From contig JBAZFO010000003.1 of NCBI GenBank assembly GCA_041653315.1, positions 1,180 to 65,179 on the forward strand: a stretch of DNA of 64,000 nt, in the 5' to 3' direction. Both the position numbers and the translations under genes were made by a program. How positions within the stretch are numbered: the first letter of the stretch is position 1; every line of letters begins with the position of its first letter. The notes beneath the pieces are model-generated. The model was given only the letters and a program-made list of their open reading frames with translations, ran no database searches and was not told where the DNA came from. The stretch comes from Candidatus Micrarchaeia archaeon. Its GTDB lineage: Archaea > Micrarchaeota > Micrarchaeia > Anstonellales > JAHKLY01. Positions 5,579-40,293 of this stretch are shown piece by piece.

Positions 5579-5611
5579 ATTTAAAAAGGCTTTTAGAGAG
5601 TACATTTCCGG
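5579..5611. repeat. 33-bp element ATTTAAAAAGGCTTTTAGAGAGTACATTTCCGG, copy 1 (downstream of the R gene)
   Basis: Perfect direct-repeat copy at 7956..7988. Core AGAGAGTACATTTCCGG also at 8820..8836 and AGAGAGTACATTT at 14262..14274. Confidence 0.8.
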
Positions 5612-6547
5612 TTAAATATCTTTAAATAATCTTTTTAATCCTACGGTGTTTACAAAAAAATTATTTTTATTATTTAAATGGGATTTAATATCCTCTTTTT
5701 GTCTTGAAATTTTATTATTAAATGAATCTTCAATAAAATAATTAAAATAAATTCCATCTATAAAAGAAACATAATGAACACATTTATTTTTTTCAGAATT
5801 TTTAATAAATGAGATTAATTCACTTATTTGTTTATCTTGAGCACCACCACCTTCTTTTATGTGTTTTGCTTCAATTATAAAGAAGTGACTCTTTATTTTA
5901 AGAACCATGTCCGGTTCTTTAGATTGTTTTCCTTTTCCAAATTTATAACATATTTTATATTTTTTACAAAATTCATTAAATAATTTTTTATCTCCTTTAT
6001 CTGGTAAAAAATAACTAATTTTATTTTCTTCAAATTTTTTAATATTTCGTGAATATTCAACTTTCATTTGTTTATTTAAAATTTCTTTAATCTTTTTTAT
6101 ACCTAAAACACTATTTTTACGTGAAGAACCAGAATCATAAAGTGCTTGAATAGTAATATTCGAATAACCTAATGAATCATAAATTTTCCTTCTTTTTTGA
6201 CAATATTCATTAAGAATTTTTTCTAAAATTTCCCTCTTATTAGAAAGTTTTAAAAAAATAGAGTAAGAAATATCTAAAACCTTCCAAAAAGCAACAAATT
6301 CTGTATATTGTACTTTATTCATTGAAAGAATTATTTTATATATCTCATCAGATATTTTAATGGCGGCTTTTTTGTCTTTTTCACACACCACACAATAACT
6401 TATTATTAATTCTCTTAATCTTTCAACTTTAATTAAAAACTCTCTATCCTCAACAATTAATTTATCTTGACAATAAAATTCATCAATAACTGGTTCTGTA
6501 TTTTTTAAAGATAAATTCCAATAAAATAAATTGTTTTTTAAAACCAT
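5612..6547 (-). CDS. Candidate type II restriction endonuclease (PD-(D/E)XK fold), partner of the adjacent methyltransferase
   Basis: PD-x12-EAK motif (EPDMVLKIKSHFFIIEAKH). Overlaps the MTase gene end by 10 nt on the same strand. No other recognisable domain. Confidence 0.45.
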   Translation of the reverse strand: MVLKNNLFYWNLSLKNTEPVIDEFYCQDKLIVEDREFLIKVERLRELIISYCVVCEKDKKAAIKISDEIYKIILSMNKVQYTEFVAFWKVLDISYSIFLKLSNKREILEKILNEYCQKRRKIYDSLGYSNITIQALYDSGSSRKNSVLGIKKIKEILNKQMKVEYSRNIKKFEENKISYFLPDKGDKKLFNEFCKKYKICYKFGKGKQSKEPDMVLKIKSHFFIIEAKHIKEGGGAQDKQISELISFIKNSEKNKCVHYVSFIDGIYFNYFIEDSFNNKISRQKEDIKSHLNNKNNFFVNTVGLKRLFKDI

Positions 6548-7935
6548 TGTTCAAGACCTCTTTTTATTTGTGGCTCTTCGATTGTTGCATATTCTTCTAT
6601 TTGTGTAGAATCTTCTATATATGTAGAAAGATCAGATAATGAAAAAGTTTGCATAAGGTTTTTAACTTGAGAAAGACCTAAATATTTTCTTATATAAGTT
6701 CCATTAGAATATTTATAGGTTGTCATAAATTCACTATCTGTGTTTTCTCTTAATTTATTAAGTAAATTATTAAATTCTTTGATTAGTTTTTTAGAATTGA
6801 CGTCTGTTAAAGTTGGAGTTAAAAACATTTGAATAGGACAAGTTCTATAAGTAGCACCACTTATAAAAATACCATCAACTCCAAATACCTCTTGAATATT
6901 ATAAATTCCTGCTTTTCCATCTATTGAACCTGTATCAACCGTTCTAATAAAAAAAGGATTAGATAAAATCTTTTTATATAAATAATCATTTACAAAAAAC
7001 TCCTTTTTTAAATAACCTCTAGATGTGTATTTCTTTGAATCTAACAAAACAACTTTATTTTTTCCTAAATTTTCATTTATCTCATTTTCAGTAAGATAAA
7101 ATGATATTGAAAAAGAATTGGTTTTTTTTATTTTTTTAGTATATTCATAAAATTCGAATCCTGCTCTAAAATGATTTTTATTTGAAAGTTTATAATGTCT
7201 TTTTTTAGTCTCACAATTAATTTTTATTGCATCAAATTCTAATTTGGTATTAATCTTATCAGTTTTTTCAAAAAAACAAATTATTACATTTGTTCCTGTA
7301 AAATCAAATATTTTTTTTTCAAAAATTACTGCTTCATTTATATTATATCTACTAAGAAAATCATCCCTTATTTTATTTGAAACAACAGCACCAAATAAAA
7401 AATTAGACGGGATAATATAAATCATATTTTTTAAATTATTTCTAAGATCATTAATTAATGCAATTTGATATAAATCTTGATATCCTTTATTTACACCTGT
7501 GAAAAGTTTTTGCTGTTCTTTATTTTTTTCATGTTTAGAAATATAACCTAAATATAAATAAGGCGGATTAGTAATATGAAACACTGGTTTTTTGGAATTA
7601 AGCAAAAATTTTGGATAATTTTTAAGTGTATCTAATTGTAGAATGTTTTTTTCAGCAATTTCTTTAGGTATCCCGTAAGAAACTGCATTTTGGATTGATT
7701 TATCCACCATTTCCGATTGAATATCAAAAAGATATATATTTGCTTTAAAAAATTCAATTCTTTTATCTTTTTCAATTTGTTCAAGAATTGGAAGAATTAA
7801 ATTACCTTCACCTGCAAAAAGATCAACCCAAATATAATCATTTAATTTATTTTTAATTTTAGGAAAAATAAATTTTTTGAAAATATTTACTGAAGTTAAA
7901 TGTACTCCAAGATCCCTTCTCTTTCCTTTATCCAT
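6538..7935 (-). CDS. N6-adenine-specific DNA methyltransferase (gamma-type, type II R-M)
   Basis: AdoMet motif I VDLFAGEGNL and catalytic motif IV ITNPPY. Confidence 0.75.
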   Translation of the reverse strand: MDKGKRRDLGVHLTSVNIFKKFIFPKIKNKLNDYIWVDLFAGEGNLILPILEQIEKDKRIEFFKANIYLFDIQSEMVDKSIQNAVSYGIPKEIAEKNILQLDTLKNYPKFLLNSKKPVFHITNPPYLYLGYISKHEKNKEQQKLFTGVNKGYQDLYQIALINDLRNNLKNMIYIIPSNFLFGAVVSNKIRDDFLSRYNINEAVIFEKKIFDFTGTNVIICFFEKTDKINTKLEFDAIKINCETKKRHYKLSNKNHFRAGFEFYEYTKKIKKTNSFSISFYLTENEINENLGKNKVVLLDSKKYTSRGYLKKEFFVNDYLYKKILSNPFFIRTVDTGSIDGKAGIYNIQEVFGVDGIFISGATYRTCPIQMFLTPTLTDVNSKKLIKEFNNLLNKLRENTDSEFMTTYKYSNGTYIRKYLGLSQVKNLMQTFSLSDLSTYIEDSTQIEEYATIEEPQIKRGLEQWF

Positions 7936-7955: not shown

Positions 7956-7988
7956 ATTTAAAAAGGCTTTTAGAGAGTACATTTCCGG
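7956..7988. repeat. 33-bp element, copy 2 (upstream of the M gene)
   Basis: Identical to 5579..5611. Confidence 0.8.
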
Positions 7989-8725: not shown

Positions 8726-9200
8726 TTTTACTACCCCCTATGTAGTTTTTATGTAGTAAATATTTATAAATGTACTGTTTTAATTCTATTTTGTAAATAA
8801 AGTTTATAAATAACATTAAAGAGAGTACATTTCCGGACTAATTATTGTAAATCAATTATCTAATGTTTAAAACTTTATTTTAAATTTATAAAATGCAGTT
8901 GATTTATGAAAAAACAAATATAAATATAAAATCAAATAAGATTATTAAAACTATTTCTATTTAACTCTAATAAAAAGTTAAAAAAATAAATATGTTTTTT
9001 ATTTTAAAATAAGTTATTAATTATTTTATTAGAGCTACTATAATATTTACTATTAATAAGAATATAGTAATAATATTAATTACTCTAGTTTCTTTTCTCA
9101 TATCAAATAGTTCTAAAAAAATTCTTTGACCATCTATTGGATTCATTTAATCACCTTTTTTATATTAATGTTTCTCCTTTATTTTAATATGAAATTTTAT

Positions 9201-10279: not shown

Positions 10280-13200
10280 TTAGGCTTCATCTAGCCAGTC
10301 GTCTTCATCGCGCATTAAATTCATACGCGCATTTTGTAATAAAAGCGCTTTTTCAGCGCTTGCTACAATTCTTCTTGTGCGCTCAATTGCATCTGGATTA
10401 ACAGACATTGATGTAAATCCATATTCAACTAAGCGCCTTGCAAAATCTGGATACACAGAAGGCGCTTGACCACATACTGAACATGTAATTCCTTTTTTAT
10501 TACAAGTTTTACCTATATATTTCAAGGATTTTAACACAGCACTGTTTCTTTCATCAAAATCATGCGCTAATTTAGCATTATCTCTGTCAACACCCAAAGT
10601 TAATTGAGTTAAATCATTTGTACCTACAGATACTCCATCTATTCCTACATCTATAAATTCATTTAATAAAATAACATTGGAAGGAACTTCTACCATCATC
10701 CAAAGTTTAAAATCTTTAGTTCTGTACAACCCTACTTCATGAAGTATTGTTTTAACTTGTTTAAGCTCTCCAACTCTCCTTACAAAAGGAATCATTAACC
10801 AAAGATTTTTAAGATTAAATTCATTACGAACTTTTTTTATTGCTTCTAATTCCATTTTGAAAACATTTGGATCTGAAATATATCTTGAAGCTCCTCTAAA
10901 ACCCATCATTGGATTTTCTTCTTCATGCTCATATTTTTCTCCGCCTTTTAATGATTTATATTCATTTGTTTTGAAATCAGTTGCTCTATAAACAACAGGC
11001 CTTGGATAAAAAGCAGAAGCAAATTTTCTTAATTCATTTGATAATTTATTTATAAATTCTTCTTTTCTATTTTCATCAACAAAAACTCTTGGGTGTTCTC
11101 CAATTTCAGCAATAATAAACTCTGCTCTTAATAATCCGATACCATCTACATCCATATCTGCTATTTCTTCAACTCTTGAAGAACTAGCTAAATTAACATA
11201 AATTTTAGTTCCAGTTATAGGAGAATATTTTTCTGTTTGAGAAATTTGTTTAGTTTCTTTATTTTTCATTTTAATTATTCCTTCATATACCACTCCCCTA
11301 ACTGCATCAACAGTTACATTCATCCCAGTAGATAATTTTTTAGTAGCATCGTTAGTACCAACAATACATGGTATGCCTAATTCTCTAGAAACTATGGCCG
11401 CATGTGAAGTTGAACCCCCATAATCAGTTACAATTGCACCTGCTTTTTTCATTGCTGGAACAAAATCTGGAGAAGTCATAGAGGTAACTAAAATTTCGCC
11501 TTTTTGTATTTTATCAATTTCATTTTTTGTAGGGATAATTCTTACTCTGCCAGAAACAACTCCTGGTGATGCACCTAATCCTTTTAATAAAACTTCTCCT
11601 TGTTCTTCATCAGAAGAATAATATGAAGGAGAATCTTCTTCATAAGATAAAGAATATCTTTCATTAATGTCTTTTTTTTCTGCTAATGAATCAAGTAAAT
11701 TATTAACTTCATCTTTTTCTTCTGTATTCTCTTGATCTAAAGTAGTAATAGGTCTAGATTGTACTATATACATTTTTCCATTTTCATAAGCCCATTCTAT
11801 ATCTTGAGGAACACCATAATGTTTTTCTATTTTTCTGCATATTTTTGCGAGTTCTACTATCTTATCATCAGATAATTTTTGTAGATTTTGAGAACTTAAT
11901 GAAATATCAATATGTTCATTTTTACCTTCAGATAAAATCAATTTCCAAGTCTGTGTAGAAATAAATTTATTTATTATTTGTAAATCATCTTTTTTAACTG
12001 AATATCTATCTGGAGTCAACGCACCAGACACTACAACTTCTCCTAATCCATATGCACCTTCAATTTCTATTCTATTTTTATCTTGGGTAATAGGATCAAC
12101 AGTAAAAGCTACACCTGCTGTTTCTGATTGAACCATTTTTTGGACTACAGCTGAAAGTCCGACTTTTAAATGATCAAATCCATTTTCAGTTCTATAAAAA
12201 ATAGCCCTGGATTCAAATAAAGAAGCCCAACATTCTTTAACAGATTGAACTACGTTTTCAGGTCCTTGAATATTAAGAAATGTTGACTGCTGCCCAGCAA
12301 ATGAAAATGTGTTATGGGTAATTATTCCCCCAGTTCCAGCAACAAAATTTTCAATTCCTGGAACAGTAAAATCATAAACCCACCCTTCATAATCTAATGG
12401 CTTTACTTCTTTTATTTTTTCCCAATTCACATCACCATCAAAAATAGATGAAAGATCTTCTGAATTATACTCTTTCATTAATTCTTTGAATCTTTTTTGT
12501 GTATATTCTCCATTTAATACTCCTTTATTCCAAGGAGTTGATTCTCTTTTAAATTTCCCAAATTCATCATAATAAACATATGCTTCTTCCTTTTCTTTAA
12601 TTACATCTTTATCATAAAAAGACTTTTTACAATTTGGACAATAATATCTTGTTTTTGTTTTATATTTGCTTGATTTATTTATTTTTTCTTTACAAATAGG
12701 ACATTTATTTATTTCAATGATGTCTTTTGATAATTTTGCATCTACTTTGTTTTTTATAATATCTGATAATTTTTTTGAAATTTTTATATTCGCTATATAT
12801 CTTGGAGAATTATTTTTTATTTTTATTAATTTATTTAATCTTTCTTGCTTCTTTGGATGTTCAAATCCTATCTCTTTTTTAAATAAATCAACATCTCCCC
12901 CCCAAATACTAAGCACCCTATATTTTTTCTTTTTATTAAAAGTAATACCAAAACCAAAAAGTTCTAATAATTTTGCTAAACCACTTATAAGTAAGTATGA
13001 AGAAGAGGTACAACTTATTGTATCTTTACTTACATATCCATCTCCATCAAAATAACCTTTTAAAAATTCAGATATAAATTGCTTTTCTAAACTAAAAATA
13101 AAATCTGGTATCCGTTTTATTTCACAGGATTTGCCTTTACCTTTCATATCTAAAGGTTTACCAGTTAATTCATGCAATAATTTAACGAGTGTTTTACAAT

Positions 13201-14251
13201 ATATCCTTAACGAATACTTATTTATTTTTTGATTATTATATAAACCAAGCGAATCAACAAATTTTATTACTCTATTCATGATTTCTTTTGTTGATGAAGT
13301 TATGATAACATTATTATCTTCATATGTTGAACCTTCAGCAACATAAACACCTAAAAAATACATAAAATCCTTTGTTAATGGAATTTTTGAAGGTAAAGAA
13401 TTTTGGATATTCCAATTATTAGAATTATTTTTAATCATAAGGTATCCATTTTCTTCAACAACATTTTTTCCTTTTATATAATCTGTTACCTCTAAATATT
13501 CCATTTTTTTATTTACAAATGGAAGTGTACCAACAGTAGGAACCATTTCTCCTCCTTTTAAATTATCAATTGTTTCTGTTTTCCATTCTAAAGTATCTTC
13601 ATCTAAAACTATTAAAGAATGATTTTTAGATACAGTAATCTCTTTTCCTGAAGCAGTTTTTATTTTATATACTCTTTCATTTGCGGGGTGTCTATATATT
13701 GAACTAGCGCTAGTCCATATTAATTTATTGTTTTTCATAGAAGGAACTTCTAAATTCACATTTTGTCCATCCCCAATTAATTTATATAATTCCCCCATTG
13801 TACAAAATTTGGTATTATTATTTATCTTTACTAAAACATGATCTTCTTCTGATATACTTGGCAAATCTTCTGCTGTGGCTGAAGATCTTACTGCAACATA
13901 GGTTTGATCACCATATTTTTGACATAATTTATTATACGCATCCATTATTTCATTTTTTAAATAATCTGGAATTTTACCTGCTAAAATTGCATTTTTAATA
14001 AATAAAGAAGCTTCATTTAAATTTTTAATATTATGAACATCTAAATCACTGGAATATTCTTTTATTAAAGAAGTAATATTATTTAATCTAATAAAATCAT
14101 AATAAGCTCCACTTGAAACACAAAAACCATCTGGAATTGGAAAATCTGAATTAATCATTTCACCTAGATTAGCCCCTTTTCCCCCAACTTCTGCTAAATT
14201 ATTTTTACTCAATTCTTTAAACCAATAGATATTTTTCATTATAAACACCAA
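10280..14251 (-). CDS. ppsA: Phosphoenolpyruvate synthase (PEP/pyruvate-binding, PEP-utilising and PEP-synthase domains), interrupted by an intein
   Basis: N-terminus GGKGANLGEM. Extein junction VAVRSSATAEDLP / TFSFAGQQSTFLN matches the conserved AEDLP..SFAGQQ block. The conserved PEP-utilising domain and C-terminal Cys block are present. Called start is TTG; the in-frame ATG at Met5 is an alternative. Confidence 0.9.
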   Translation of the reverse strand: MVFIMKNIYWFKELSKNNLAEVGGKGANLGEMINSDFPIPDGFCVSSGAYYDFIRLNNITSLIKEYSSDLDVHNIKNLNEASLFIKNAILAGKIPDYLKNEIMDAYNKLCQKYGDQTYVAVRSSATAEDLPSISEEDHVLVKINNNTKFCTMGELYKLIGDGQNVNLEVPSMKNNKLIWTSASSIYRHPANERVYKIKTASGKEITVSKNHSLIVLDEDTLEWKTETIDNLKGGEMVPTVGTLPFVNKKMEYLEVTDYIKGKNVVEENGYLMIKNNSNNWNIQNSLPSKIPLTKDFMYFLGVYVAEGSTYEDNNVIITSSTKEIMNRVIKFVDSLGLYNNQKINKYSLRIYCKTLVKLLHELTGKPLDMKGKGKSCEIKRIPDFIFSLEKQFISEFLKGYFDGDGYVSKDTISCTSSSYLLISGLAKLLELFGFGITFNKKKKYRVLSIWGGDVDLFKKEIGFEHPKKQERLNKLIKIKNNSPRYIANIKISKKLSDIIKNKVDAKLSKDIIEINKCPICKEKINKSSKYKTKTRYYCPNCKKSFYDKDVIKEKEEAYVYYDEFGKFKRESTPWNKGVLNGEYTQKRFKELMKEYNSEDLSSIFDGDVNWEKIKEVKPLDYEGWVYDFTVPGIENFVAGTGGIITHNTFSFAGQQSTFLNIQGPENVVQSVKECWASLFESRAIFYRTENGFDHLKVGLSAVVQKMVQSETAGVAFTVDPITQDKNRIEIEGAYGLGEVVVSGALTPDRYSVKKDDLQIINKFISTQTWKLILSEGKNEHIDISLSSQNLQKLSDDKIVELAKICRKIEKHYGVPQDIEWAYENGKMYIVQSRPITTLDQENTEEKDEVNNLLDSLAEKKDINERYSLSYEEDSPSYYSSDEEQGEVLLKGLGASPGVVSGRVRIIPTKNEIDKIQKGEILVTSMTSPDFVPAMKKAGAIVTDYGGSTSHAAIVSRELGIPCIVGTNDATKKLSTGMNVTVDAVRGVVYEGIIKMKNKETKQISQTEKYSPITGTKIYVNLASSSRVEEIADMDVDGIGLLRAEFIIAEIGEHPRVFVDENRKEEFINKLSNELRKFASAFYPRPVVYRATDFKTNEYKSLKGGEKYEHEEENPMMGFRGASRYISDPNVFKMELEAIKKVRNEFNLKNLWLMIPFVRRVGELKQVKTILHEVGLYRTKDFKLWMMVEVPSNVILLNEFIDVGIDGVSVGTNDLTQLTLGVDRDNAKLAHDFDERNSAVLKSLKYIGKTCNKKGITCSVCGQAPSVYPDFARRLVEYGFTSMSVNPDAIERTRRIVASAEKALLLQNARMNLMRDEDDWLDEA
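12311..13858 (-). mobile_element. Intein (516 aa) with a LAGLIDADG homing-endonuclease domain inside ppsA
   Basis: Begins SISEEDHVLV (Ser1) straight after DLP and ends ...GGIITHN followed by Thr+1. LAGLIDADG blocks LGVYVAEGS and LKGYFDGDGYVS. Removing it restores an 807-aa PpsA. Confidence 0.8.
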
Positions 14252-14364: not shown

Positions 14365-14502
14365 GGGCTCGTAACTCAGCTTGGTAGAGTGGCTGGCTTT
14401 TAACCAGTAAGCCAAGGGTTCAATAACCTTTTTCTTTCTTGCAAGAAAGTAAAAGCTTAACCAAAAAGAAAGAAACTGGAAGAATAAATCCCTTCGGGCC
14501 CG
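14365..14502 (+). tRNA. tRNA-Lys (anticodon UUU) with a roughly 61-nt intron inside the T-loop (between TTCAA and AT, position 58/59)
   Basis: Acceptor GGGCTCG/CGGGCCC, D arm ACTC...GAGT, anticodon stem-loop GCTGG CTTTTAA CCAGT. T stem AAGGG...CCCTT is split by an intron that carries the hairpin TTTCTTTCTTGCAAGAAAG. Poly-T follows. Confidence 0.7.
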
Positions 14503-14550: not shown

Positions 14551-15150
14551 ATGGAAATAGAATTCAAAAATAAAGAAATACATCTTAAAAGAGATACCTC
14601 CGAATTAGATAAATTTGTATTTGAAACAGTAAAAATAGTAAAAAAACATACAAAATATGTAATAATTAGTGGATATATTGCAATTCTTTTTGGTCGAGCA
14701 AGAGGAACAGAGGATATAGATATGTTTATTGAAAGAATTGATTTCAAAACTTTTGAAAAGATGTTTGATGATTTACTTGAAAATAATATGTGGTGTATAA
14801 ACGGAAGTAATAAAAGAAAAATGTTTGATTTATTAGAAGATAATCTAGCAATAAGATTTGCAAAAAAAGATACAGTTATCCCGAATTTTGAAATAAAATT
14901 TATAAAAGATATATATTCAAAATACTCTTTGGATAATAAAATAAAAGTAATACTTAATAAAGAAGAATTATATACTTCTTTACTAGAAATGCAAATACCT
15001 TATAAATTAAAATTAGGTTCTGAAAAAGATTTAGAAGATGCAACACATTTATATGTTTTATTTGAAAAATATTTAGATATGCAAAAAATGAAGGAAATAG
15101 CAAAAATGCTAAAAGTGGATTTGGGTGTATTAAATGAGAGATTACAATGA
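14551..15150 (+). CDS. Nucleotidyltransferase-fold protein (Pol beta-like minimal NTase, toxin-type)
   Basis: ISGYIAILFGRARGTEDIDMFIE matches the G[SG]-x9-13-[DE]h[DE]h NTase signature. Confidence 0.5.
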   Translation: MEIEFKNKEIHLKRDTSELDKFVFETVKIVKKHTKYVIISGYIAILFGRARGTEDIDMFIERIDFKTFEKMFDDLLENNMWCINGSNKRKMFDLLEDNLAIRFAKKDTVIPNFEIKFIKDIYSKYSLDNKIKVILNKEELYTSLLEMQIPYKLKLGSEKDLEDATHLYVLFEKYLDMQKMKEIAKMLKVDLGVLNERLQ

Positions 15151-15330: not shown

Positions 15331-15996
15331 ATGAATAAAAAAATAATAAAAATATTCCCAGGAGTATTTGAAATTGAAAGAAGAATTGCTACAAAGAATT
15401 TAATTAAAGGTAATCCTGTTTATGGAGAAATTATAAAAAAAATAGATAATGATGAATATAGGTTTTGGGACCCTCATAGAAGTAAATTATGTGCTGCAAT
15501 TAAAAGAGGAATAAAAGATATTTATATTAAAGAAGGAGATAAAGTATTATATTTAGGGGCAGCAACTGGAACAACATCTTCTCATGTTGCAGATATTATA
15601 GGCCCTAAAGGAGTAGCTTACTGTGTTGAATTTGCACCTATTTCATTTAGGAAACTTATTCATGTATGCGAAAATAGAACAAATATGATCCCAATAATGG
15701 GAGATGCAAGGAAACCAGATATGTATACTGAAGTTGGAGAAGTAGATATTGTTTATGAGGATGTAGCACAACCAGATTTAGCAGAAATACTATTAACAAA
15801 TTGCAGATATTTCTTAAAAAAAGGAGGATATGCAATGCTTGCTGTTAAATCACAAAGTATTGATGTTACTAAAGATCCAAAACAAACATATGAAGAAACT
15901 ATAAAAAAATTAGAAAAAGAACTAAAAATTGTTGAAACAATTATCTTAGATCCATATGAAAAAGACCACCTGTTTATTGTAGCTCAAAAAATTTAA
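15331..15996 (+). CDS. flpA: Fibrillarin-like rRNA/tRNA 2'-O-methyltransferase
   Basis: FWDPHRSKLCAAI, AdoMet motif YLGAATGTTSSHVADI; 221 aa. Confidence 0.9.
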   Translation: MNKKIIKIFPGVFEIERRIATKNLIKGNPVYGEIIKKIDNDEYRFWDPHRSKLCAAIKRGIKDIYIKEGDKVLYLGAATGTTSSHVADIIGPKGVAYCVEFAPISFRKLIHVCENRTNMIPIMGDARKPDMYTEVGEVDIVYEDVAQPDLAEILLTNCRYFLKKGGYAMLAVKSQSIDVTKDPKQTYEETIKKLEKELKIVETIILDPYEKDHLFIVAQKI

Positions 15997-16745: not shown

Positions 16746-16974
16746 ATTAAAATTTAATATAAAATTATCTCAGAATAAATTTATAAAACATAGCTTTATA
16801 AACGAAAAACACGTATAATATTATAGGCAATGAAGTCACCGTCCCAGTATGAGATTAACGATGATTACCGGAGTAGCTACTGAGCCCATTATTATATTTT
16901 TTAATATTTTATACTCCATTACTTTTTTTACCAAAGTTATACTTTTATATAACTTTCGTAATATAATATCTTCT

Positions 16975-17619
16975 ATGGAATTACCAATTGAGAAAAAATT
17001 AAAAAAACAAGTACATTTAGAAACTGCTATTTTACAAGATATAATAATGGAAAAACTCGTTTATTCCTTAGACTTAGTTCTTCATGGAGGAACTTCTATA
17101 TGGCGAGTATATAAAGGAAATCGGTTTTCTGAAGATTTAGATTTTTATATGGAAAAATGGGAACCTGATAAAATAAAAGAAACTTTAAAAGAATTAGAAA
17201 TTTTTGAAATGAAACTCAAAAAATTTAAAAAAACAAAAAATACTGTTTTTTCAGTAATTGAAAAAAACAATGTAATTGTAAAAGTAGAAGCTTCTAAAAA
17301 ACACTGGAAATTTAAAGAAATGTTAGGAGAATATGAAAAAACAAATGGAAGTTATCTTCCTATTAGTACATTATCAGCAGAAGATTTATTCAAAGAAAAA
17401 ACAAAAACATATTTAAATAGAAGATTGATAAGAGATATTTATGATATATATTTCTTATTCCATCAGTGCGATTTTAAAAAAATAGAAAAAACAGGTAAAG
17501 AATTTATAAAAAATATCCCTTTCCCAAAAGATGAAGATGTTTTAAAATCATTAATTTTAACAGGAAAAGTTCCAACATTTAATGAAATAAAACTAAAATT
17601 ATTAAATTGGTTTAAATAG
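16975..17619 (+). CDS. AbiEii-type nucleotidyltransferase (DUF1814-like toxin of a type IV TA/Abi module)
   Basis: GGTSIWRVYKGNRFSEDLDFY matches the AbiEii GGTAL...RFSEDIDF signature. The track ORF begins at 16849, but the first 42 codons are hydrophobic low-complexity, so ATG at 16975 (MELPIEKK) is preferred. Confidence 0.6.
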   Translation: MELPIEKKLKKQVHLETAILQDIIMEKLVYSLDLVLHGGTSIWRVYKGNRFSEDLDFYMEKWEPDKIKETLKELEIFEMKLKKFKKTKNTVFSVIEKNNVIVKVEASKKHWKFKEMLGEYEKTNGSYLPISTLSAEDLFKEKTKTYLNRRLIRDIYDIYFLFHQCDFKKIEKTGKEFIKNIPFPKDEDVLKSLILTGKVPTFNEIKLKLLNWFK

Positions 17620-17627
17620 GTGAAATT

Positions 17628-18137
17628 ATGAAATATTCGTTAGAAATATTCAAATCAAAAAAATATCCTGTTTTTACGTTTAAAGATATTAAACAATTAA
17701 AAATACCTAAAAACTATGCAAAACAACTTATGTATAATAAAATAAAAAGAGGAGAAGTAAAAAGAATTAAAAAAGGGTATTATACTTTTCACGAAGATCC
17801 AATGATTGTAGTATTTGCATATGAACCAGCATATCTAGGATTAGAATCAGCATTAAGTATACATAAGGTTTGGGATCAAAAAACTGTTCCTGTGATTATA
17901 ACACAAAAAAACGTTAGACAGGGAATAAGAAAATTTAATAATACAAATTATGTTGTTAAAAGAATAGCACCCTCTTTATTTACAGATTACACAACCATTA
18001 ATTATTATGGGTTTTGGCTTCCTGTTTCAACTTTAGAAAAAACTTATGAAGATATCAAATATTTTAATGAAAAAATAGATCCAAAAACTATGAGGAAATT
18101 AAAAAAACTAATTAAAAAAAATAAACTTAAAAAATAA
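17628..18137 (+). CDS. AbiEi-like putative antitoxin/transcriptional regulator (wHTH N-terminus)
   Basis: N-terminal YPVFTFKDIKQL...KRGEVKRIKKGYYTF resembles the AbiEi N-terminal domain. Start is 9 nt after the AbiEii stop. Confidence 0.4.
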   Translation: MKYSLEIFKSKKYPVFTFKDIKQLKIPKNYAKQLMYNKIKRGEVKRIKKGYYTFHEDPMIVVFAYEPAYLGLESALSIHKVWDQKTVPVIITQKNVRQGIRKFNNTNYVVKRIAPSLFTDYTTINYYGFWLPVSTLEKTYEDIKYFNEKIDPKTMRKLKKLIKKNKLKK

Positions 18138-19015: not shown

Positions 19016-20233
19016 ATGAGTGTTTTTGAAAATAATATAAAAAGATTAGAAAATTTAAAAGATATAATACCAATAACAAAAAAAGAAATGGAAATTTTAA
19101 CTAATCCTAAAAAAGTGCTTAAAGGAAAGATAAAAATAAAGGACAAAGAATACGAAGCGTATAGAATAATATTTAATGATTCATTAGGTCCTGGAAAAGG
19201 TGGAATAAGGTTTCATCCAAAAGTAAATGAAGATGAGGTAAACTCATTGGCTTTTTGGATGGCTTTAAAAAACTCATTAGTTGGATTACCTTATGGCGGA
19301 GCTAAAGGAGGAGTAAATATTGATCCTAAACAATTAACACAAAAAGAATTAGAAGAAGTAAGCAGACAATATATGCAATTATTTTATGAAAACTTTGGAC
19401 AAAATAAAGATATTCCTGCACCAGATGTTAATACTAATTCTCAAATAATGGCTTGGATGCTTGATGAATATGAAAAAATTAAAAATAAACATGAATTCTC
19501 AATGATAACTGGAAAACCTATTGAATTAGGTGGGTGTGAATTAAGAGCAGGAGCAACAGGACAAGGAGGAGCAATTGTTTTAGATAATATAATAAAAAAA
19601 TTGGGAAAAAATCCAGATGAAACTACCGTTGCTATTCAAGGCTTTGGAAATGTTGGATTATATCTAGCTAAATTTTTATTTGAACGAGAGTATAAGATAA
19701 TTGCAATTAGTGATATTTCTGGAATGGTCTATGATAAAGAAGGTTTAAACATAAATAATTTAATCAATGATATGAAAGGAAAAGAATATCTAAAAGACTG
19801 CGGAATGGAAATAAAAGATAAAGAAGAATTATTATATTTAGAATGCGATGTTTTAGCGCCTTCTGCTTTAGAAAATCAAATAACAAAAGAAAACGCAGAT
19901 AAAGTAAAGGCAAAGATAATTTTGGAAATGGCAAATGGCCCAATAACTTCAGAAGCAGATGAAATTTTAAATAAAAATGATATTTTAATTATACCTGATA
20001 TTTTAGCAAATTCAGGAGGGGTTATTGTAAGTTATTTTGAATGGGTTCAAAATAAATTAGGTAATTTCTTTGAAATGGAAGATTTAGAAAGAAAATTAGA
20101 ATGTATATTAAACAAAACAACAGATAAAGTATTTAATCAAGAATTAAAAGACAAATATAATTTAAGAACAGTTGCTTATGCGCTTGCTATAAAAAGAATT
20201 TTAGATGCAGAAAAACTAAGAGGCAACTGCTAA
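19016..20233 (+). CDS. gdhA: NAD(P)-dependent glutamate dehydrogenase
   Basis: Catalytic LPYGGAKGGVNIDP and Rossmann GFGNVGL. AGGTGA Shine-Dalgarno-like motif 7 nt upstream. Confidence 0.9.
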   Translation: MSVFENNIKRLENLKDIIPITKKEMEILTNPKKVLKGKIKIKDKEYEAYRIIFNDSLGPGKGGIRFHPKVNEDEVNSLAFWMALKNSLVGLPYGGAKGGVNIDPKQLTQKELEEVSRQYMQLFYENFGQNKDIPAPDVNTNSQIMAWMLDEYEKIKNKHEFSMITGKPIELGGCELRAGATGQGGAIVLDNIIKKLGKNPDETTVAIQGFGNVGLYLAKFLFEREYKIIAISDISGMVYDKEGLNINNLINDMKGKEYLKDCGMEIKDKEELLYLECDVLAPSALENQITKENADKVKAKIILEMANGPITSEADEILNKNDILIIPDILANSGGVIVSYFEWVQNKLGNFFEMEDLERKLECILNKTTDKVFNQELKDKYNLRTVAYALAIKRILDAEKLRGNC

Positions 20234-21936
20234 TTTTTTATTTTTTTTATTAAATCTTTAACTGTTTTAGCGCTATTTATTATATCCTTATCCTGCGCCC
20301 AGCCTTTTCGCGCTGTTCCTATTCCTAATTCAATAAATCTTAGATGATCAATTGAATGTGAATCTGTTCCTATTGATAATTGTACTCCTTTTTGTATTGC
20401 GCGCCTTATATTATCTGCGCTTAAATCTAATCTATCCATATAACAATCTATTTCTAATGTGGTATTTGTTTGTTTTGCTTTTTCAAATATCTCATCTAAA
20501 TTTAAATTATATCCATCTCTTTTACCTATAACTCTTCCTGTTGGATGTGCTATTATATCAACATTTTCATTTTCCATAGCATTCATTATTCTTTTAGTCA
20601 TGTCTTTTTCAGACATTTTAAAATTGGAGTGAACTGCACCTAAAACAATATCTAATTCTTTTAAAATATTATCAGGAACATCAATTGAACCATCTTTTCT
20701 TATGTTTGCTTCAACTCCTTTTAATACTGTTATTCCATTTACTTCTTTATTTACTTTATCTATTTCTTTTGCTTGTTTTTCAAAATCAATTTCTTTTAAT
20801 CCTTGAGCAATTACTAAATCAGCTAATGAATGGTCTGTTATAAGAATATATTTATGGCCTAATTTTTTAGCTGCTAGAGCCATTTCTTTAATTGAATTTG
20901 AACCATCACTCCAAGTAGAATGCATTTGTAAATCTCCATATACTTTTGAAATTAAATTAGGTATTTTATTTTTTTCAGCTAATTCAATTTCTCCATTATT
21001 TTCTCTTAATTCTGGGGGAACATATTGTAAATTTAATTTTGAATAAACTTCTTTTTCTGTTTTTCCTGCTTCTTGTTTTTTATCTTTAAAAAGTCCGTAT
21101 TCATTTAATTTCAATTTATTTTTCATTGCTATTCTTCTTAAAGCAATATTATGTTCTTTTGAACCCGTAAAATACATCATTGCTGAACCAAATTCATTTT
21201 CATTAAATATTCTAAAATCACAATCAATTCCTATATTCAAAAAAGCAGTGCTTTTTAATTTTCCTTTTGATTTTATTTTTTCAATATATTTTAAAGATGT
21301 AAATTTATCCATTGCTTTTTGTGGATTATCTGAAACAACCAAAATATCTATATCTCCAATAGTTTCTTTCATTCTTCTTAATGAACCTACAAGTTCTATT
21401 TGTTTTATTGATTTTTCTTTTTTTAACTCACTTTTTATTTCATTTGCTATAGGTAAAACATAACCTAATAACTGCCTTCCTTTTATTCTTGAAAGCATTT
21501 GTATCCCATTTAATATTTCTTCTTCTGATTTTTCTCCAAAACCATCTAATTCTTTTATTTTATTATTTTTAACTGCTTTTTCTAATTCATTTAAATTTGT
21601 TATATTTAATTTTTCATATAAAATCTTTATTTTTTTAGGACCTAATGAAGGAATTCTTTTTAAAGAATCAAAATCAACAGGAATTTCTTTTTTTAATCTT
21701 TCATATGTTCCTATTTTTCCTGTTTCTAAATATTCTATTATTTTCTCTTTTGTTGATTTTCCAACTCCTGAAATTGAATCTAATCTTTTTTCTTTATATA
21801 ATATTTCAATATCTTCTTGGAGCATTTCTATTGAAGTTGCAGCATTTCTATATGCTCTTGGGCTCCAATCAACTCCTTTTAATTCTAATAAATCAGCAAT
21901 TTTATAAAATATATTAGCTATTTCTTGATTTTTCAT
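20230..21936 (-). CDS. polX: Family X DNA polymerase with C-terminal PHP phosphoesterase domain (PolX)
   Basis: HhH GVGKSTKEKI, pol beta NTase GSLRRMKETIGDIDILV, PHP motifs LQMHSTWSDGS and HS..DH. Confidence 0.85.
   Translation of the reverse strand: MKNQEIANIFYKIADLLELKGVDWSPRAYRNAATSIEMLQEDIEILYKEKRLDSISGVGKSTKEKIIEYLETGKIGTYERLKKEIPVDFDSLKRIPSLGPKKIKILYEKLNITNLNELEKAVKNNKIKELDGFGEKSEEEILNGIQMLSRIKGRQLLGYVLPIANEIKSELKKEKSIKQIELVGSLRRMKETIGDIDILVVSDNPQKAMDKFTSLKYIEKIKSKGKLKSTAFLNIGIDCDFRIFNENEFGSAMMYFTGSKEHNIALRRIAMKNKLKLNEYGLFKDKKQEAGKTEKEVYSKLNLQYVPPELRENNGEIELAEKNKIPNLISKVYGDLQMHSTWSDGSNSIKEMALAAKKLGHKYILITDHSLADLVIAQGLKEIDFEKQAKEIDKVNKEVNGITVLKGVEANIRKDGSIDVPDNILKELDIVLGAVHSNFKMSEKDMTKRIMNAMENENVDIIAHPTGRVIGKRDGYNLNLDEIFEKAKQTNTTLEIDCYMDRLDLSADNIRRAIQKGVQLSIGTDSHSIDHLRFIELGIGTARKGWAQDKDIINSAKTVKDLIKKIKN
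20250..20335. repeat. About 85-bp direct repeat, copy 2 (native polX 3' end)
   Basis: Identical to 18798..18884. Confidence 0.85.
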
Positions 21937-22026: not shown

Positions 22027-22242
22027 ATGACAAATACAACAATTATGATTGATTTAGAAATAAAATCTGCATTGGATTCTCTTAAAATACATCATAGAGA
22101 ATCATATAAAGAAATTATTGAAAAACTTATTAATTTTTATTTAGATGAAAAAAAATTGAAAAATTTTGTAGATGAAGCACAAAAAGAAAAAATAAAGGAG
22201 CTTTGGGATAATGAATGGGATGAAATCTGGAACACAGCTTAA
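22027..22242 (+). CDS. Small antitoxin-like protein (MazE/RHH-like), putative partner of the downstream PemK/MazF-like gene
   Basis: 71 aa, acidic C-terminus, overlaps the next gene by 32 nt. Assignment is by context. Confidence 0.35.
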   Translation: MTNTTIMIDLEIKSALDSLKIHHRESYKEIIEKLINFYLDEKKLKNFVDEAQKEKIKELWDNEWDEIWNTA

Positions 22243-22537
22243 ATTTGGAGATATAATATTAGCTGAAATACCTTTTGTTGAAATTAATGAAGTTAAAAAA
22301 AGACCTGCTTTGGTCCTATTCGAAGAACATAATAATGTAATTTTAATGGGCATAACAAGCAATCCACTAATGAAAGGAATTCAAATAACTAAAAAAGAGG
22401 GTGCTTTAACAAACAGCATTATTAAATTAAATTATATATTTACAATTGATAAAAATAAAATTATTAAAAAACTCTTTTCTTTATCTAAAAATAAAAAAGA
22501 TTTAATTTCTAGAGAATTTATTAAAAAAATAAAATAA
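22211..22537 (+). CDS. MazF/PemK-family toxin-like endoribonuclease
   Basis: GDIILAEIPF...KKRPALVL...VILMGITSN matches the PemK/MazF core pattern (GDIV..fP...K.RPalVl....v.v..iTs). Confidence 0.5.
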   Translation: MNGMKSGTQLKFGDIILAEIPFVEINEVKKRPALVLFEEHNNVILMGITSNPLMKGIQITKKEGALTNSIIKLNYIFTIDKNKIIKKLFSLSKNKKDLISREFIKKIK

Positions 22538-25588: not shown

Positions 25589-25652
25589 ACCTTATTTGAT
25601 ATTTTTATTTTATATCTTCTTCTTTATAAATGTTTTGCTTTGTGTAAAAAAA

Positions 25653-25678
25653 AGTAAATAGCCTGCCTCAGACTCTGT
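25653..25678. repeat. 26-bp direct repeat AGTAAATAGCCTGCCTCAGACTCTGT, copy 1
   Basis: Identical copy at 27321..27346 spanning the AbiEii stop codon. Confidence 0.8.
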
Positions 25679-25836
25679 TTGAATTATGTGTGAATAGACT
25701 AACCTACATTGTTTATTTAACTTAATTTTGTAATAATATCTTTTCCTTCATAAAATTAGTTCAAAAAGTGTCATTTAATGACACTTTTTAAAAAGAAATA
25801 GAAAGGTTTTTATATTAGTAAGTAATAAACATATCT

Positions 25837-26433
25837 ATGAAAAATATAATTAAAATTTATGAAGCACTGATTAATCGAAAATCAAAAATATGTCATAGAA
25901 AAGAAATTATTGATATAATCAAAGAATATAATAAAAAATTTGGGAAAGTAAACATTAAAAACACGCTAAAATATCTTTCAAGACATAAATATACTATACG
26001 AGTATTCAAAAAGTTCTATTATATAAATTCATTAGATGAAAAGGAGCGTAAATTTTGTTTATTTGAAGATAGAGAATTATTATTTTCTGTATTAAACAAA
26101 CTCGATATTAAATGGTATGTTGGACTTAACTCTGCTTTATACATTTCTGGAGAAATTTGGCAAATACCAAACATATTGACAATAGTAAACAACAAAATAA
26201 GTGGAAAAAAATCAATACTTGGAATTACTGTTAGATTCTTCAAAATAAAAGAATCTTTAATTTTCGGCCTTAAGACAAAAAAAACTAAAAATAAAATTAA
26301 ATTTTATTACTCTAATCCCTCAAAAACTTATTTAGATTTAGTATATTTCAAACAATCTAAAAAAATTATTTTAAAGGAAAAAACTAAAAATTATCTTAAG
26401 AGGTATCCAAAATGGCTCAAAAAATTAATATAA
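25837..26433 (+). CDS. AbiEi-like antitoxin/regulator
   Basis: N-terminal wHTH-like LKYLSRHKYTIRVFKKFYYI. Overlaps the downstream AbiEii gene by 22 nt. Confidence 0.5.
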   Translation: MKNIIKIYEALINRKSKICHRKEIIDIIKEYNKKFGKVNIKNTLKYLSRHKYTIRVFKKFYYINSLDEKERKFCLFEDRELLFSVLNKLDIKWYVGLNSALYISGEIWQIPNILTIVNNKISGKKSILGITVRFFKIKESLIFGLKTKKTKNKIKFYYSNPSKTYLDLVYFKQSKKIILKEKTKNYLKRYPKWLKKLI

Positions 26434-27329
26434 ATAAATACATTGCAGAGGTCAAAAGGAATCTTGGAATAAAAGTTTCAGATGAAATAATTGAAAAAGA
26501 CCTGCTTCTGACTATTATTTTAGGGGAGTTTGAAAAGCTCGGGCTTGGAAAAGAACTTATTTTTAAAGGAGGAACTCTTTTATCGAGAAATTATTTGAAT
26601 TACCATCGATTTTCTGAAGATTTGGATTTTGTTCATCATAAATCCAATAAATTAAGAAAAATGAAAAGAAGAACAAGAGAAAAGGAAATTAAAAAATTCA
26701 TAGATTCATTTGTTCCAAAAATATATACATTAGCTGAAAACCTTGAACTTATATTTAGTAAAAATAGAAGTGATACAAAATTCTGTACTATTCTTCATGG
26801 AAGGACAGTATATATTTTCAGAATGTATTATTCTAACTCTAGATTTATAAAAATTGAGATTAATTTTATAGAAAAAATTATTCACAAACCAGTAAAAATT
26901 TCAATAAAAACAATAACTGATCTTTTTGATTCAAAAGAACTTGTGTTCAGTCTTGGGCTTGATATTCAAAACTTTAATATAAAAAGCTATTCTATAAATG
27001 AAATACTCATTGAAAAATACAGGGCAATTTTAACAAGAAAAGACTTAAAAGAAAGGGATTTGTTTGATTTATTTTTTATTCCAAATTCTCTTTCAATAAA
27101 AAAATCTGAAATAATACAAAAAATAAGTGCTTCATCATTAATAAAACGGGATCTTAATAAACTAATAGAAAAAAAACTTACTTTACTTGAAAAAAACAAT
27201 TTTTTTGAGAGTGATGAAAATATGGAATACCTAGCAATCGCTAATTATGATAAAAAGAAATTTGAAAAATTTAAGGAAAAAATAAAACCAAAACTAATAG
27301 AAATTTGCAAGACATTTTTAAGTAAATAG
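26412..27329 (+). CDS. AbiEii-type nucleotidyltransferase toxin (DUF1814-like)
   Basis: KGGTLLSRNYLNYHRFSEDLDFVH signature. Confidence 0.7.
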   Translation: MAQKININKYIAEVKRNLGIKVSDEIIEKDLLLTIILGEFEKLGLGKELIFKGGTLLSRNYLNYHRFSEDLDFVHHKSNKLRKMKRRTREKEIKKFIDSFVPKIYTLAENLELIFSKNRSDTKFCTILHGRTVYIFRMYYSNSRFIKIEINFIEKIIHKPVKISIKTITDLFDSKELVFSLGLDIQNFNIKSYSINEILIEKYRAILTRKDLKERDLFDLFFIPNSLSIKKSEIIQKISASSLIKRDLNKLIEKKLTLLEKNNFFESDENMEYLAIANYDKKKFEKFKEKIKPKLIEICKTFLSK

Positions 27330-27346
27330 CCTGCCTCAGACTCTGT
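27321..27346. repeat. 26-bp direct repeat, copy 2
   Basis: Identical to 25653..25678. Confidence 0.8.
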
Positions 27347-27476
27347 CAGCCTTCTCATCGCATTTCTGCTAAACGGTTGTTCATGTCATCATCGGCTTTG
27401 TCTATAATATACGAACATTTCTGCGCATAATATCATAGACAATTATATTTATGCTTTTTCCCTTTATAAATATTAC

Positions 27477-28379: not shown

Positions 28380-28567
28380 ACTTATTATTAAATAGTAGAA
28401 ATAAATAAAAAATAGCGTATTACTTTTTTGGATTAATATCTTTAAAATAAGATCTTCTTCCTAATTTTTCCTTTTTTGTATCTTGTTTTTTTTCTCCTTC
28501 AGAATCTGTTCCATCCCAAAAAATCATATTATCACCAATTAATTTATTTAACATAAAAATATAAAAA

Positions 28568-28810
28568 TGCTCCGGCCGGGATTTTCTCCCAGTTGGCTTT
28601 TTTGCGCCAGCCAAGGTTTTGAATTCTCGAGCCTACAGGGTTCTTTTCTTTCCCTGGGGTTTCTTTTCTTACAAGAAAAGAAAGGCCACCCGGGTCGCCA
28701 GGGATCTCCAAATTTTCTTTTTCTTTCCCAAGGGTTTCTTTTTCTTTTCAAAAAAGAAAAAGAAAGGCTTTGAGAGCCTGGTATCCTTGACCGGACTAGA
28801 CGACCGGAGC
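28568..28810 (-). tRNA. tRNA-Glu (anticodon CUC) interrupted by three predicted introns: in the anticodon loop, at the T-stem/T-loop junction (about 53/54) and within the T-loop (58/59)
   Basis: Exons read GCTCCGGTCGTCTAGTCCGGTCAAGGATACCAGGCTCTCA / CCCTGGCGACCCGGG / TTCAA / ATCCCGGCCGGAGCA. Joined, they give a canonical archaeal tRNA-Glu (GACCCGGGTTCAAATCCCGGCCGGAGCA). Poly-T follows. Confidence 0.6.
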
Positions 28811-28814
28811 TTTA

Positions 28815-28928
28815 CGAATGTAATGAGTAAAGCGAGGTCTTTTTGCAACAGCAAAACAGACCGGAGCAAACGAACGTTAGTGAGTTTGTGAGGTCTTTTT
28901 GACAAAGTCAAAACAGACCGGAGCAAAA
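28815..28928. repeat. Two tandem units of about 57 bp upstream of tRNA-Glu. Each ends in a copy of the tRNA 5' end (GCTCCGGTCTG) embedded in a GGTC...GACC hairpin
   Basis: CGAATGTAATGAGTAAAGCGAGGTCTTTTTGCAACAGCAAAACAGACCGGAGCAAA versus CGAACGTTAGTGAGTTTGTGAGGTCTTTTTGACAAAGTCAAAACAGACCGGAGCAAAA. Confidence 0.7.
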
Positions 28929-40185: not shown

Positions 40186-40293
40186 TGGGCCCAGTGAGAT
40201 TTGAACTCACGGCCTCTCGATTATCAGTCGAGCGCTCCAACCATTTTAGGCTTATTTAAATCTTACTAAATAAACTGACTAAGCTATGGGCCC
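40186..40293 (-). tRNA. tRNA-Ile (anticodon GAU) with a roughly 31-nt intron in the D-loop
   Basis: GGGCCCA TA GCTT AGTCAG[TTTATTTAGTAAGATTTAAATAAGCCTAAAA]TGGTTGGAGC G CTCGA CTGATAA TCGAG AG GCC GTGAG TTCAAAT CTCAC TGGGCCC A. T-loop is intact. Confidence 0.65.

Follow-up and report, generated by a model that had tools for sequence, protein, structure and literature searches.

A stretch of 64,000 nt from a Candidatus Micrarchaeia archaeon (GCA_041653315.1, contig JBAZFO010000003.1), called the window in what follows, carries a two-gene AbiE toxin-antitoxin (TA) module that was quite probably inserted at the 3′ end of a resident box C/D small RNA (sRNA) gene, with duplication of 27 bp of the target. 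We would place this event in the class of insertions with target duplications of variable length, in which the incoming unit brings no recombinase of its own. The insert measures ~1.64 kb, contains abiEi and abiEii as its only genes and is oriented convergently to the sRNA. Owing to the duplication, the sRNA gene is still intact, as is the promoter region of the membrane-protein gene on the other side.

The original prediction for this locus described an AbiEi/AbiEii pair bounded by 26-bp direct repeats, one of them 160 bp upstream of abiEi and the other across the abiEii stop codon, and this description holds. The 26-mer AGTAAATAGCCTGCCTCAGACTCTGT is present in exactly two plus-strand copies in the window, at 25653-25678 and 27321-27346, where no match is expected by chance (0 in 100 shuffles of the window). 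The identity in fact extends over 27 bp and is perfect (27/27), since a further A matches at 25652 and 27320, such that copy 1 occupies 25652-25678 and copy 2 occupies 27320-27346. Copy 1 ends 158 nt before the ATG of abiEi (25837), and the abiEii stop codon (TAG, 27327-27329) falls within copy 2 together with the last codons of the gene. On the minus strand, the repeat reads ACAGAGU-CUGA-GGC-AGGCUAUUUACUU and comprises the final 7 nt of the D guide of the sRNA, its box D, the 3′ half of its terminal stem and the next 13 nt of downstream sequence. Copy 2 runs without interruption into the complete sRNA gene; copy 1 is an orphan 3′ fragment of that gene, without box C. Directly 3′ of copy 1 on the minus strand lies a run of eight T (25646-25653, A8 on the plus strand). 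This is probably the original terminator of the sRNA, now split off by the cassette, because oligo-T is a known termination signal of archaeal RNA polymerase; in a cassette-free relative, T-runs directly follow the same sequence.

The repeat is not a common motif. Apart from the two copies in the window, a search for its 21-mer core gave a match in a single genome of the GTDB representative set and in no viral contig. The genome concerned is a Ca. Micrarchaeota metagenome-assembled genome (MAG), JAHKLY010000002.1 (L005), in which the flanking DHH-family gene and the genes downstream of it are ~80% identical to the window at the DNA level. Its orthologous locus consists of the membrane-protein gene, a single copy of the repeat, the sRNA and the DHH gene, and the AbiE cassette is absent. 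The locus thus is not invariant among relatives, and L005 presents an empty site.

A second indication of an empty site comes from the sequencing run SRR18595300, whose Logan assembly splits the region into three contigs. Contig L003 ends at 25678, L002 covers 25649-27349 and L001 starts at 27320, with overlaps of 30 nt between them. When de Bruijn unitigs were simulated at k=31, the occupied allele alone gave no break, whereas a mixture of the occupied and the empty allele gave breaks exactly at the observed coordinates. The 27-bp repeat by itself cannot branch or mis-join a k=31 graph, because it is shorter than k-1. It follows from the match of the break points that the sample very probably holds both alleles. 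An excised circle in the same run was considered and rejected, since its predicted breaks (25681; 25652-27346; 27317) differ from those observed. Both junctions of the occupied allele are supported by the Logan contigs L003, L002 and L001, and the left junction has independent support from a Joint Genome Institute (JGI) contig, L004, that is 99.96% identical to the window. The occupied-left junction sequence ends in CTCTGTTTGAATTATG and the occupied-right one starts with CATTTTTAAGTAAATAGCC; the junction predicted for the empty site is AAAAAAAAGTAAATAGCCTGCCTCAGACTCTGTCAGCCTTC, and that predicted for a circle is CATTTTTAAGTAAATAGCCTGCCTCAGACTCTGTTTGAATT.

The target of the insertion lies in the stretch that follows copy 2. 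This stretch (27347-27440) had been noticed for being GC-richer than the genome, which is correct (39.4% as compared to 25.9% in the window, the 98th percentile of 94-nt windows), and had been taken as compositionally foreign, which is not. It is native, because the same sRNA and an accompanying hairpin are present at the orthologous site of the cassette-free L005. We conclude that the minus strand here likely carries a native gene for a box C/D methylation-guide sRNA; in a genome of 26% GC, structured RNA genes stand out as GC-rich. The candidate sRNA extends over 64 nt (27333-27396, minus strand, GC 50%) with the layout GCC-G-AUGAUGA-...-GCGAUGA-...-CUGA-GGC from 27396 to 27333. A terminal stem of 3 bp (GCC at 27394-27396 with GGC at 27333-27335) encloses box C (AUGAUGA, 27386-27392), a candidate D′ (CAGA, 27365-27368), a candidate C′ (GCGAUGA, 27355-27361) and box D (CUGA, 27336-27339). 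The internal boxes can also be read as C′ GAUGAGA and D′ UUUA, and depending on the assignment the spacers measure 12-17 nt. The corresponding guide sequences are CGGUUGUUCAUG and either ACUCUGUCAGCC or the longer ACUCUGUCAGCCUUC.

The L005 orthologue shares boxes C and D, the two guides, the stem and ~13 nt of 3′ flank with the sRNA of the window, and differs from it by a 17-nt indel in the central loop. A scan of the 64 kb with a C/D pattern returned this sRNA as its sole match, with none in 20 shuffles, though the rules were set after the sequence had been seen, which lowers the weight of the result. In the E-value mode of Rfam, the archaeal C/D families sR14, sR1, sR17, sR22, sR2 and sR41 all align to it end to end below threshold, the best of them being sR14 (19.8 bits against a threshold of 38, E 0.033). 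The methyltransferase of the C/D ribonucleoprotein, fibrillarin, is encoded in the window (15331-15996, PF01269, E 1.6e-85). Before the fibrillarin gene, in the usual archaeal position of Nop5, there is a 199-aa open reading frame (ORF) at 14551-15150 that has no Pfam match and may be a reduced or divergent Nop5. The complements of the guides, searched in the window and 102 further loci, matched only the sRNA gene itself, and no rRNA of the organism is among these sequences. A stable hairpin (27398-27442, same strand) immediately precedes the sRNA, close behind the stop codon of the DHH-family gene; the fold of 27330-27448 on the minus strand reaches -30.1 kcal/mol (z -3.2). Its counterpart in L005 adopts the same fold with a different stem sequence (z -2.5). 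The minimum free energy fold of the sRNA alone is no more stable than that of shuffles (z +0.5), which is no evidence either way because a kink-turn RNA is expected to fold so.

The cassette belongs to a family that is widespread in DPANN archaea, where homologues of its AbiEii with 58-76% identity are common (Micrarchaeia, Woesearchaeota, Nanoarchaeota). At every related locus examined, AbiEii is paired with an AbiEi of 197-203 aa, and the genomic contexts are unrelated. We surveyed 42 de-duplicated DPANN AbiE loci with both flanks for bracketing direct repeats, using windows shifted by 1-2 kb as controls. An exact repeat of at least 15 bp brackets 15 of the 42 loci as compared to 3 of 190 shifted windows (Fisher p 4e-10), and one of at least 20 bp brackets 9 of 42 as compared to 0 of 190 (Fisher p 1e-7); in the inverted-orientation control, there was one among the 42 loci. 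The 16 bracketing repeats have no common sequence and measure 15-161 bp with mismatches allowed, some being imperfect. The arms between the repeats and the cassette core are likewise unconserved and variable in length (left 96-353 nt, right -10 to 212 nt). A 16-bp repeat in L078/L074 consists of a promoter motif of the BRE/TATA type (B recognition element and TATA box) and probably is a chance match. Together with the empty site in L005 and the apparently mixed alleles in one run, the family-wide enrichment bears out that part of the original prediction that saw a mobile TA cassette or a trace of integration in the locus; the foreign GC-rich stretch that it had invoked in support falls away.

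At least nine of the 16 duplications extend across the 3′ end of a neighbouring gene or directly adjoin it. The gene concerned codes for a protein in six of them, and in the other three it is a C/D-like sRNA (L010), a signal recognition particle (SRP) RNA (L080) or the sRNA of the window itself. The repeat that brackets the L010 cassette has 17 bp and covers the D guide and box D of the C/D-like sRNA. This sRNA (L010 ~4970-5093, minus strand) stands directly after the AbiE cassette and was read by eye, with no Rfam call; it consists of AUGACGA, 13 nt, CUGA, a loop of ~70 nt able to form a hairpin, GUGAUGA, 12 nt and CUGA. At L080 (region 2118-2431), the AbiE cassette is bracketed by a repeat of 37 bp, which is at the same time the T-rich 3′ flank of an archaeal SRP RNA (2170-2431, minus strand; 73 bits, E 2e-14, below gathering). 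In three loci from Woesearchaeota (L011/L013/L016), a GC-rich sequence of ~130 nt lies ~20-150 nt past abiEii on the minus strand, with long-range complementarity between segments, AAGCCTGCC...GTCAGCTTTG ... CAAAGCTGAC..GGCAGGCTT, and it may be a further structured RNA beside the cassette.

Two other gene units in the window are bracketed in the same manner. A perfect 32-bp direct repeat, TTTAAAAAGGCTTTTAGAGAGTACATTTCCGG, at 5580-5611 and 7957-7988 encloses a putative restriction-modification (RM) unit just upstream of dph2. It comprises a gene for an N6-adenine methyltransferase (6538-7935, minus strand; Pfam PF02384, NPPY motif) and an unannotated ORF of 311 aa (5612-6547, minus strand), which probably form an RM unit together. 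The 32-bp repeat also contains a motif resembling a B recognition element (BRE) and TATA box on its minus strand, and a third copy with 80% identity is found at 8807-8836. The second unit is a glutamate dehydrogenase (GDH) gene (19016-20233, plus strand), bracketed between 18779 and 20340 by a direct repeat of 110 nt with 91% identity and a perfect core of 87 nt that duplicates the 3′ end of a PolX-like gene (20230-21936, minus strand). The Logan contig L003 ends inside this repeat.

In the explanation that we favour, a self-contained AbiE module consisting of operator, promoter, abiEi and abiEii would have entered between the body of the sRNA gene and its oligo-T terminator. In doing so, it would have duplicated 27 bp, with copy 2 preserving the sRNA gene and copy 1 being left as a dead 3′ fragment beside the old terminator. 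Host recombination or repair may have joined the incoming DNA to the target at two points offset from each other, for instance at a staggered break or on sister chromosomes, the joining being illegitimate or by short homology and making use of microhomology. The closest cassette, L107, has DNA homology with the window over 25759-27326, and its abiEii ends in ...TTCTTAGATAAAT... as compared to ...TTTTTAAGTAAATAG in the window. At its beginning, the repeat has ~8 nt (AAGTAAAT) that look like the 3′ end of abiEii in L107 and also like the native target, a hint of a microhomology junction; L107 has a candidate 13-bp repeat of its own, interrupted by the contig end. As an alternative route, a circular intermediate could integrate by a single crossover. 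The perfect identity of the two copies argues for a recent insertion. Recombination between the flanking repeats would subsequently permit precise loss of the cassette, from which a polymorphism of occupied and empty sites would result. Selection would keep those insertions whose duplication preserves the adjacent gene, and this would account for the bias towards gene 3′ ends, including those of non-coding RNA genes.

Several points weigh against this explanation or parts of it. With respect to the sRNA, the C′ and D′ boxes are degenerate, the guide spacers are ~15-17 nt long as opposed to the canonical 12 nt, and its conservation rests on two orthologues. At gathering thresholds, Rfam gave no match at the locus, and the sRNA remains below the threshold of every C/D family; this does not exclude the class, because the families are guide-specific. 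The sole sequenced empty site, that of L005, belongs to a different species, and for the same sample we infer the empty allele from the ends of contigs, as it was not read directly. The simulation used k=31, which we take to be the value of the Logan assemblies, and the observed overlaps of 30 nt agree with this. Four other Logan contigs of ~1.7 kb that carry AbiE cassettes (L103-L106) start and end without a shared repeat, such that short contigs alone are no evidence of a polymorphic insertion. About two thirds of the AbiE family have no detectable bracketing repeat. No donor or vehicle was found among viral contigs or plasmids: none of the viral contigs encodes a relative of the window AbiEii, and the plasmid matches to it are distant (25-34% identity). 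The mechanism of the duplication is itself inferred, the staggered or microhomology route or a single crossover being most likely. Finally, in the survey of RM units by Furuta, Abe & Kobayashi 2010 (PMC2853133), the criterion for a duplication was >30 bp and the tabulated range was roughly 45-420 bp; the 27-bp repeat of the window falls slightly short of this criterion, and the AbiE family covers 15-161 bp.

Site-specific integration could account for the same architecture. The cassette would then be a non-autonomous element mobilized in trans by a tyrosine or serine integrase, with the 3′ end of the small RNA as attB and the 27-mer as the core of the attachment (att) site. The repeat indeed extends over the 3′ end of a gene for a small RNA and restores this gene, which is the classic tRNA-att layout of archaeal elements (PMC4158269), and the L010 and L080 cassettes also stand directly 3′ of non-coding RNA genes. 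However, no integrase or transposase is annotated by Pfam in the ORFs from 413 to 41909, and across the family the repeats have no common core, their distances to the cassette core vary and the arms are unrelated. In at least six of the 16 cases, the duplicated 3′ end belongs to a protein-coding gene and not to an RNA gene, and ARAGORN found no tRNA at the 15 repeat-positive loci, for which reason a tRNA att site was rejected. The putative RM unit and the GDH gene, cargo unrelated to AbiE, moreover have the same architecture with different repeats. Archaeal tRNA-targeting elements with SSV-type or pTN3-type integrases share the insertion at the 3′ end of a small structured RNA and the restoration of the gene (PMC4158269); the cassette differs from them by the lack of an integrase and of a conserved att core, by its size of 1.6 kb with two genes, and by its C/D sRNA target. 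We therefore consider site-specific integration unlikely.

Alternatively, the cassette might be ancestral at the locus, with the empty sites of L005 and of a part of the population having arisen by deletion. Direct repeats do promote precise deletion, and the polymorphism within the sample is equally well explained by loss. Yet a duplicated gene 3′ end still requires an earlier insertion, and L005 has a clean single copy with the terminator directly attached. Furthermore, the homologues stand in unrelated contexts of other DPANN lineages, and the 27/27 repeat speaks for a recent event, which makes ancestral presence improbable.

We give even less credence to a reading in which the repeat was kept for a function, with the orphan sRNA fragment, or the convergent overlap of sRNA and abiEii, regulating AbiE or the membrane-protein gene by antisense pairing. 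From the arrangement at the right junction, it does follow that the 3′ untranslated region (UTR) of the abiE mRNA would run antisense through the sRNA, and that the sRNA would read through ~50 nt into abiEii before the next T-rich tract; two cassettes, in addition, share the convergent arrangement with a C/D sRNA. Nevertheless, most members of the family have no sRNA nearby, the repeats are unrelated and often are coding fragments, and L005 has the sRNA without the cassette. That the repeat is a chance match or the product of a chimeric contig or mis-join, as can occur in MAGs, is hardly credible, given zero chance matches, the agreement of three independent assemblies (MAG, JGI L004, Logan) and a repeat length of 27 bp that is shorter than k-1.

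Two further types of element were considered and rejected. A transposon resembling an insertion sequence or a miniature inverted-repeat transposable element does not fit, as there are no terminal inverted repeats, the cassette ends are unconserved and the duplications range from 15 to 161 bp. An integron cassette does not fit either, since the abiEii stop codon inside the duplication leaves no room for attC and there is neither an integrase nearby nor an array.

The cassette of the window has a genome-like GC content of 22.9% and no terminal inverted repeats. The first gene, abiEi (25837-26433, plus strand), encodes an antitoxin/transcriptional regulator of 198 aa that PADLOC assigns to AbiEi (E 5.2e-16 over residues 14-192) and that has no Pfam match. 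It overlaps by 22 nt with the downstream abiEii (26412-27329, same orientation), which encodes a DUF1814 nucleotidyltransferase toxin of 305 aa (Pfam PF08843, E 2.2e-25, 90 bits against a cut-off of 22.5; PADLOC AbiEii, E 3.6e-40). Its motif KGGTLLSRNY..RFSEDLDF is invariant in the family (GGT..S-x-DLDF region, 22 homologues). By homology, the module would be expected to act as an AbiE toxin-antitoxin system. The left arm of the insert (25679-25759, plus strand) is unconserved among related cassettes upstream of the operator, and homology with L107 starts at 25759. The conserved core begins ~95 nt upstream of the ATG with a palindrome, AAAAAGTGTCA-N5-TGACACTTTTT, followed by a BRE/TATA-like box. 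In the window, the palindromic operator-like site (25760-25792, plus strand; core AAAAAGTGTCATTTAATGACACTTTTT) is an inverted repeat (I19) with 16-nt arms that are 94% complementary, and it is kept in position and sequence in 14 cassettes, directly upstream of the BRE/TATA-like box. AbiE systems reportedly repress themselves through an operator in their promoter, and for this reason the palindrome presumably is the site of AbiEi binding and autorepression. The BRE/TATA-like element (AGAAAGGTTTTTATAT, 25800-25815, plus strand; AAAGrTTTATATA in all aligned cassettes) is likely to act as the promoter. Since it lies ~25 nt upstream of the abiEi ATG, the abiEi mRNA would be leaderless or near-leaderless.

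The window contains further TA modules. A second, distant AbiE pair has the reversed gene order, with an AbiEii-like gene at 16849-17619 and an AbiEi-like gene at 17628-18137 (PADLOC E 5e-20 and 4e-15), and according to Pfam matches on the Logan contig L003, a PemK-family toxin (22211-22537) is paired with a DUF7557 protein (22027-22242). The total within ~22 kb thus comes to three TA modules plus the putative RM unit.

Another GC-rich segment (45%) extends over 28565-28925 between the DHH and DUF4013 genes. It is non-coding and strongly structured on both strands (z ~-5.8), and its part at 28618-28810 is 84% identical to L005, which exceeds the identity of the adjacent coding sequence. It holds a tandem unit of 57 nt ending in ACAGACCGGAGCAAA, and the Logan contig L001 ends inside it. 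Rfam gave no credible match for this segment, which probably is an unannotated structured RNA of ~360 nt. Rfam also has tRNA matches at 40194-40252 (minus strand) and 14372-14431 (plus strand) that cover model positions 8/9-63 only and miss the acceptor stem. Across the entire window, ARAGORN made no tRNA call. The two matches may stem from tRNAs that are split, permuted or unusual at their ends, or else from a limitation of the tools. An intein that includes a LAGLIDADG homing endonuclease (Pfam Intein_splicing, LAGLIDADG_3, Hom_end) is present in the gene for phosphoenolpyruvate synthase/pyruvate phosphate dikinase (10280-14239, minus strand).

With this locus, a known but little-studied class of gene mobility is extended to a new class of cargo, a new group of hosts and a new type of target. 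It illustrates how a defence or addiction module can find its way into a very small archaeal genome with neither transposase nor integrase and leave the target gene unbroken. Variable-duplication mobility, known from RM units of mostly naturally competent bacteria, would thereby reach TA modules and DPANN archaea. In the literature, we found no report of archaeal TA cassettes with such duplications, nor of insertions at C/D sRNA genes. The analysis has furthermore yielded a likely guide RNA of the box C/D type in a Micrarchaeota genome, a group for which, to our knowledge, few annotated guide RNAs are known. For GC-rich islands in very AT-rich genomes, RNA genes are a more likely explanation than foreign DNA. 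It is tempting to go one step further and to propose that DPANN archaea gain genes such as AbiE, RM and GDH by a general, recombinase-independent and reversible route via variable target duplication, with the insertions landing or surviving mainly at the 3′ ends of genes, those for non-coding RNAs among them, but we hold this as a tentative idea and are inclined to doubt it in this general form. If it were true, cassettes would flicker in and out of populations through their flanking repeats, and the three examples in the window, along with about one third of one TA family, would be the trace of a major genome flux in reduced genomes.

Compared with archaeal box C/D sRNAs (Rfam sR14, sR1 and sR17; the Pyrobaculum families, PMC6009581), the target of the insertion shares boxes C and D with a short stem, C′/D′-like boxes, a length of ~64 nt, conserved guides and the presence of fibrillarin, while it differs by its sub-threshold scores, spacers of more than 12 nt, a degenerate D′ and the conserved hairpin that precedes it. 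The module itself shares with type IV AbiE systems the overlapping bicistron, with the AbiEi-family regulator first and the DUF1814 nucleotidyltransferase second, and the palindromic promoter operator. It differs in having an archaeal BRE/TATA promoter, with a probably leaderless mRNA, and a short AbiEi of 198 aa that Pfam misses. AbiE as a type IV TA and abortive infection (Abi) system was reportedly characterized by Dy et al. in 2014 (NAR) and by Hampton et al. in 2018.

For the joining step, homology-facilitated illegitimate recombination offers a mechanistic analogy only: it shares the capture of foreign DNA by host recombination through short or one-sided homology and microhomology, without enzymes or defined ends of an element, whereas it typically yields insertion-deletions and not target duplications. 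The process is said to have been described in naturally transformable bacteria, by de Vries & Wackernagel and by Prudhomme et al., both in 2002. We know of no demonstration of it in archaea or DPANN.

Insertion with long target duplication was described for RM units (Nobusato et al. 2000 Gene 259:99). In the later survey of such units, the duplications often span the start or stop of a neighbouring gene, the mechanism is given as unknown and no archaeal RM system passed the screen (PMC2853133). Our AbiE cassette and its family have in common with these insertions that an addiction-type unit without mobility genes is bracketed by repeats which align to a single copy at the empty site of a relative, that these repeats are variable and often span the start or stop of a neighbour while the target gene stays intact, and that they are enriched around a class of genes. 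The AbiE case is set apart by its cargo, a type IV TA/Abi module, by its DPANN host and by a C/D sRNA gene as its target.

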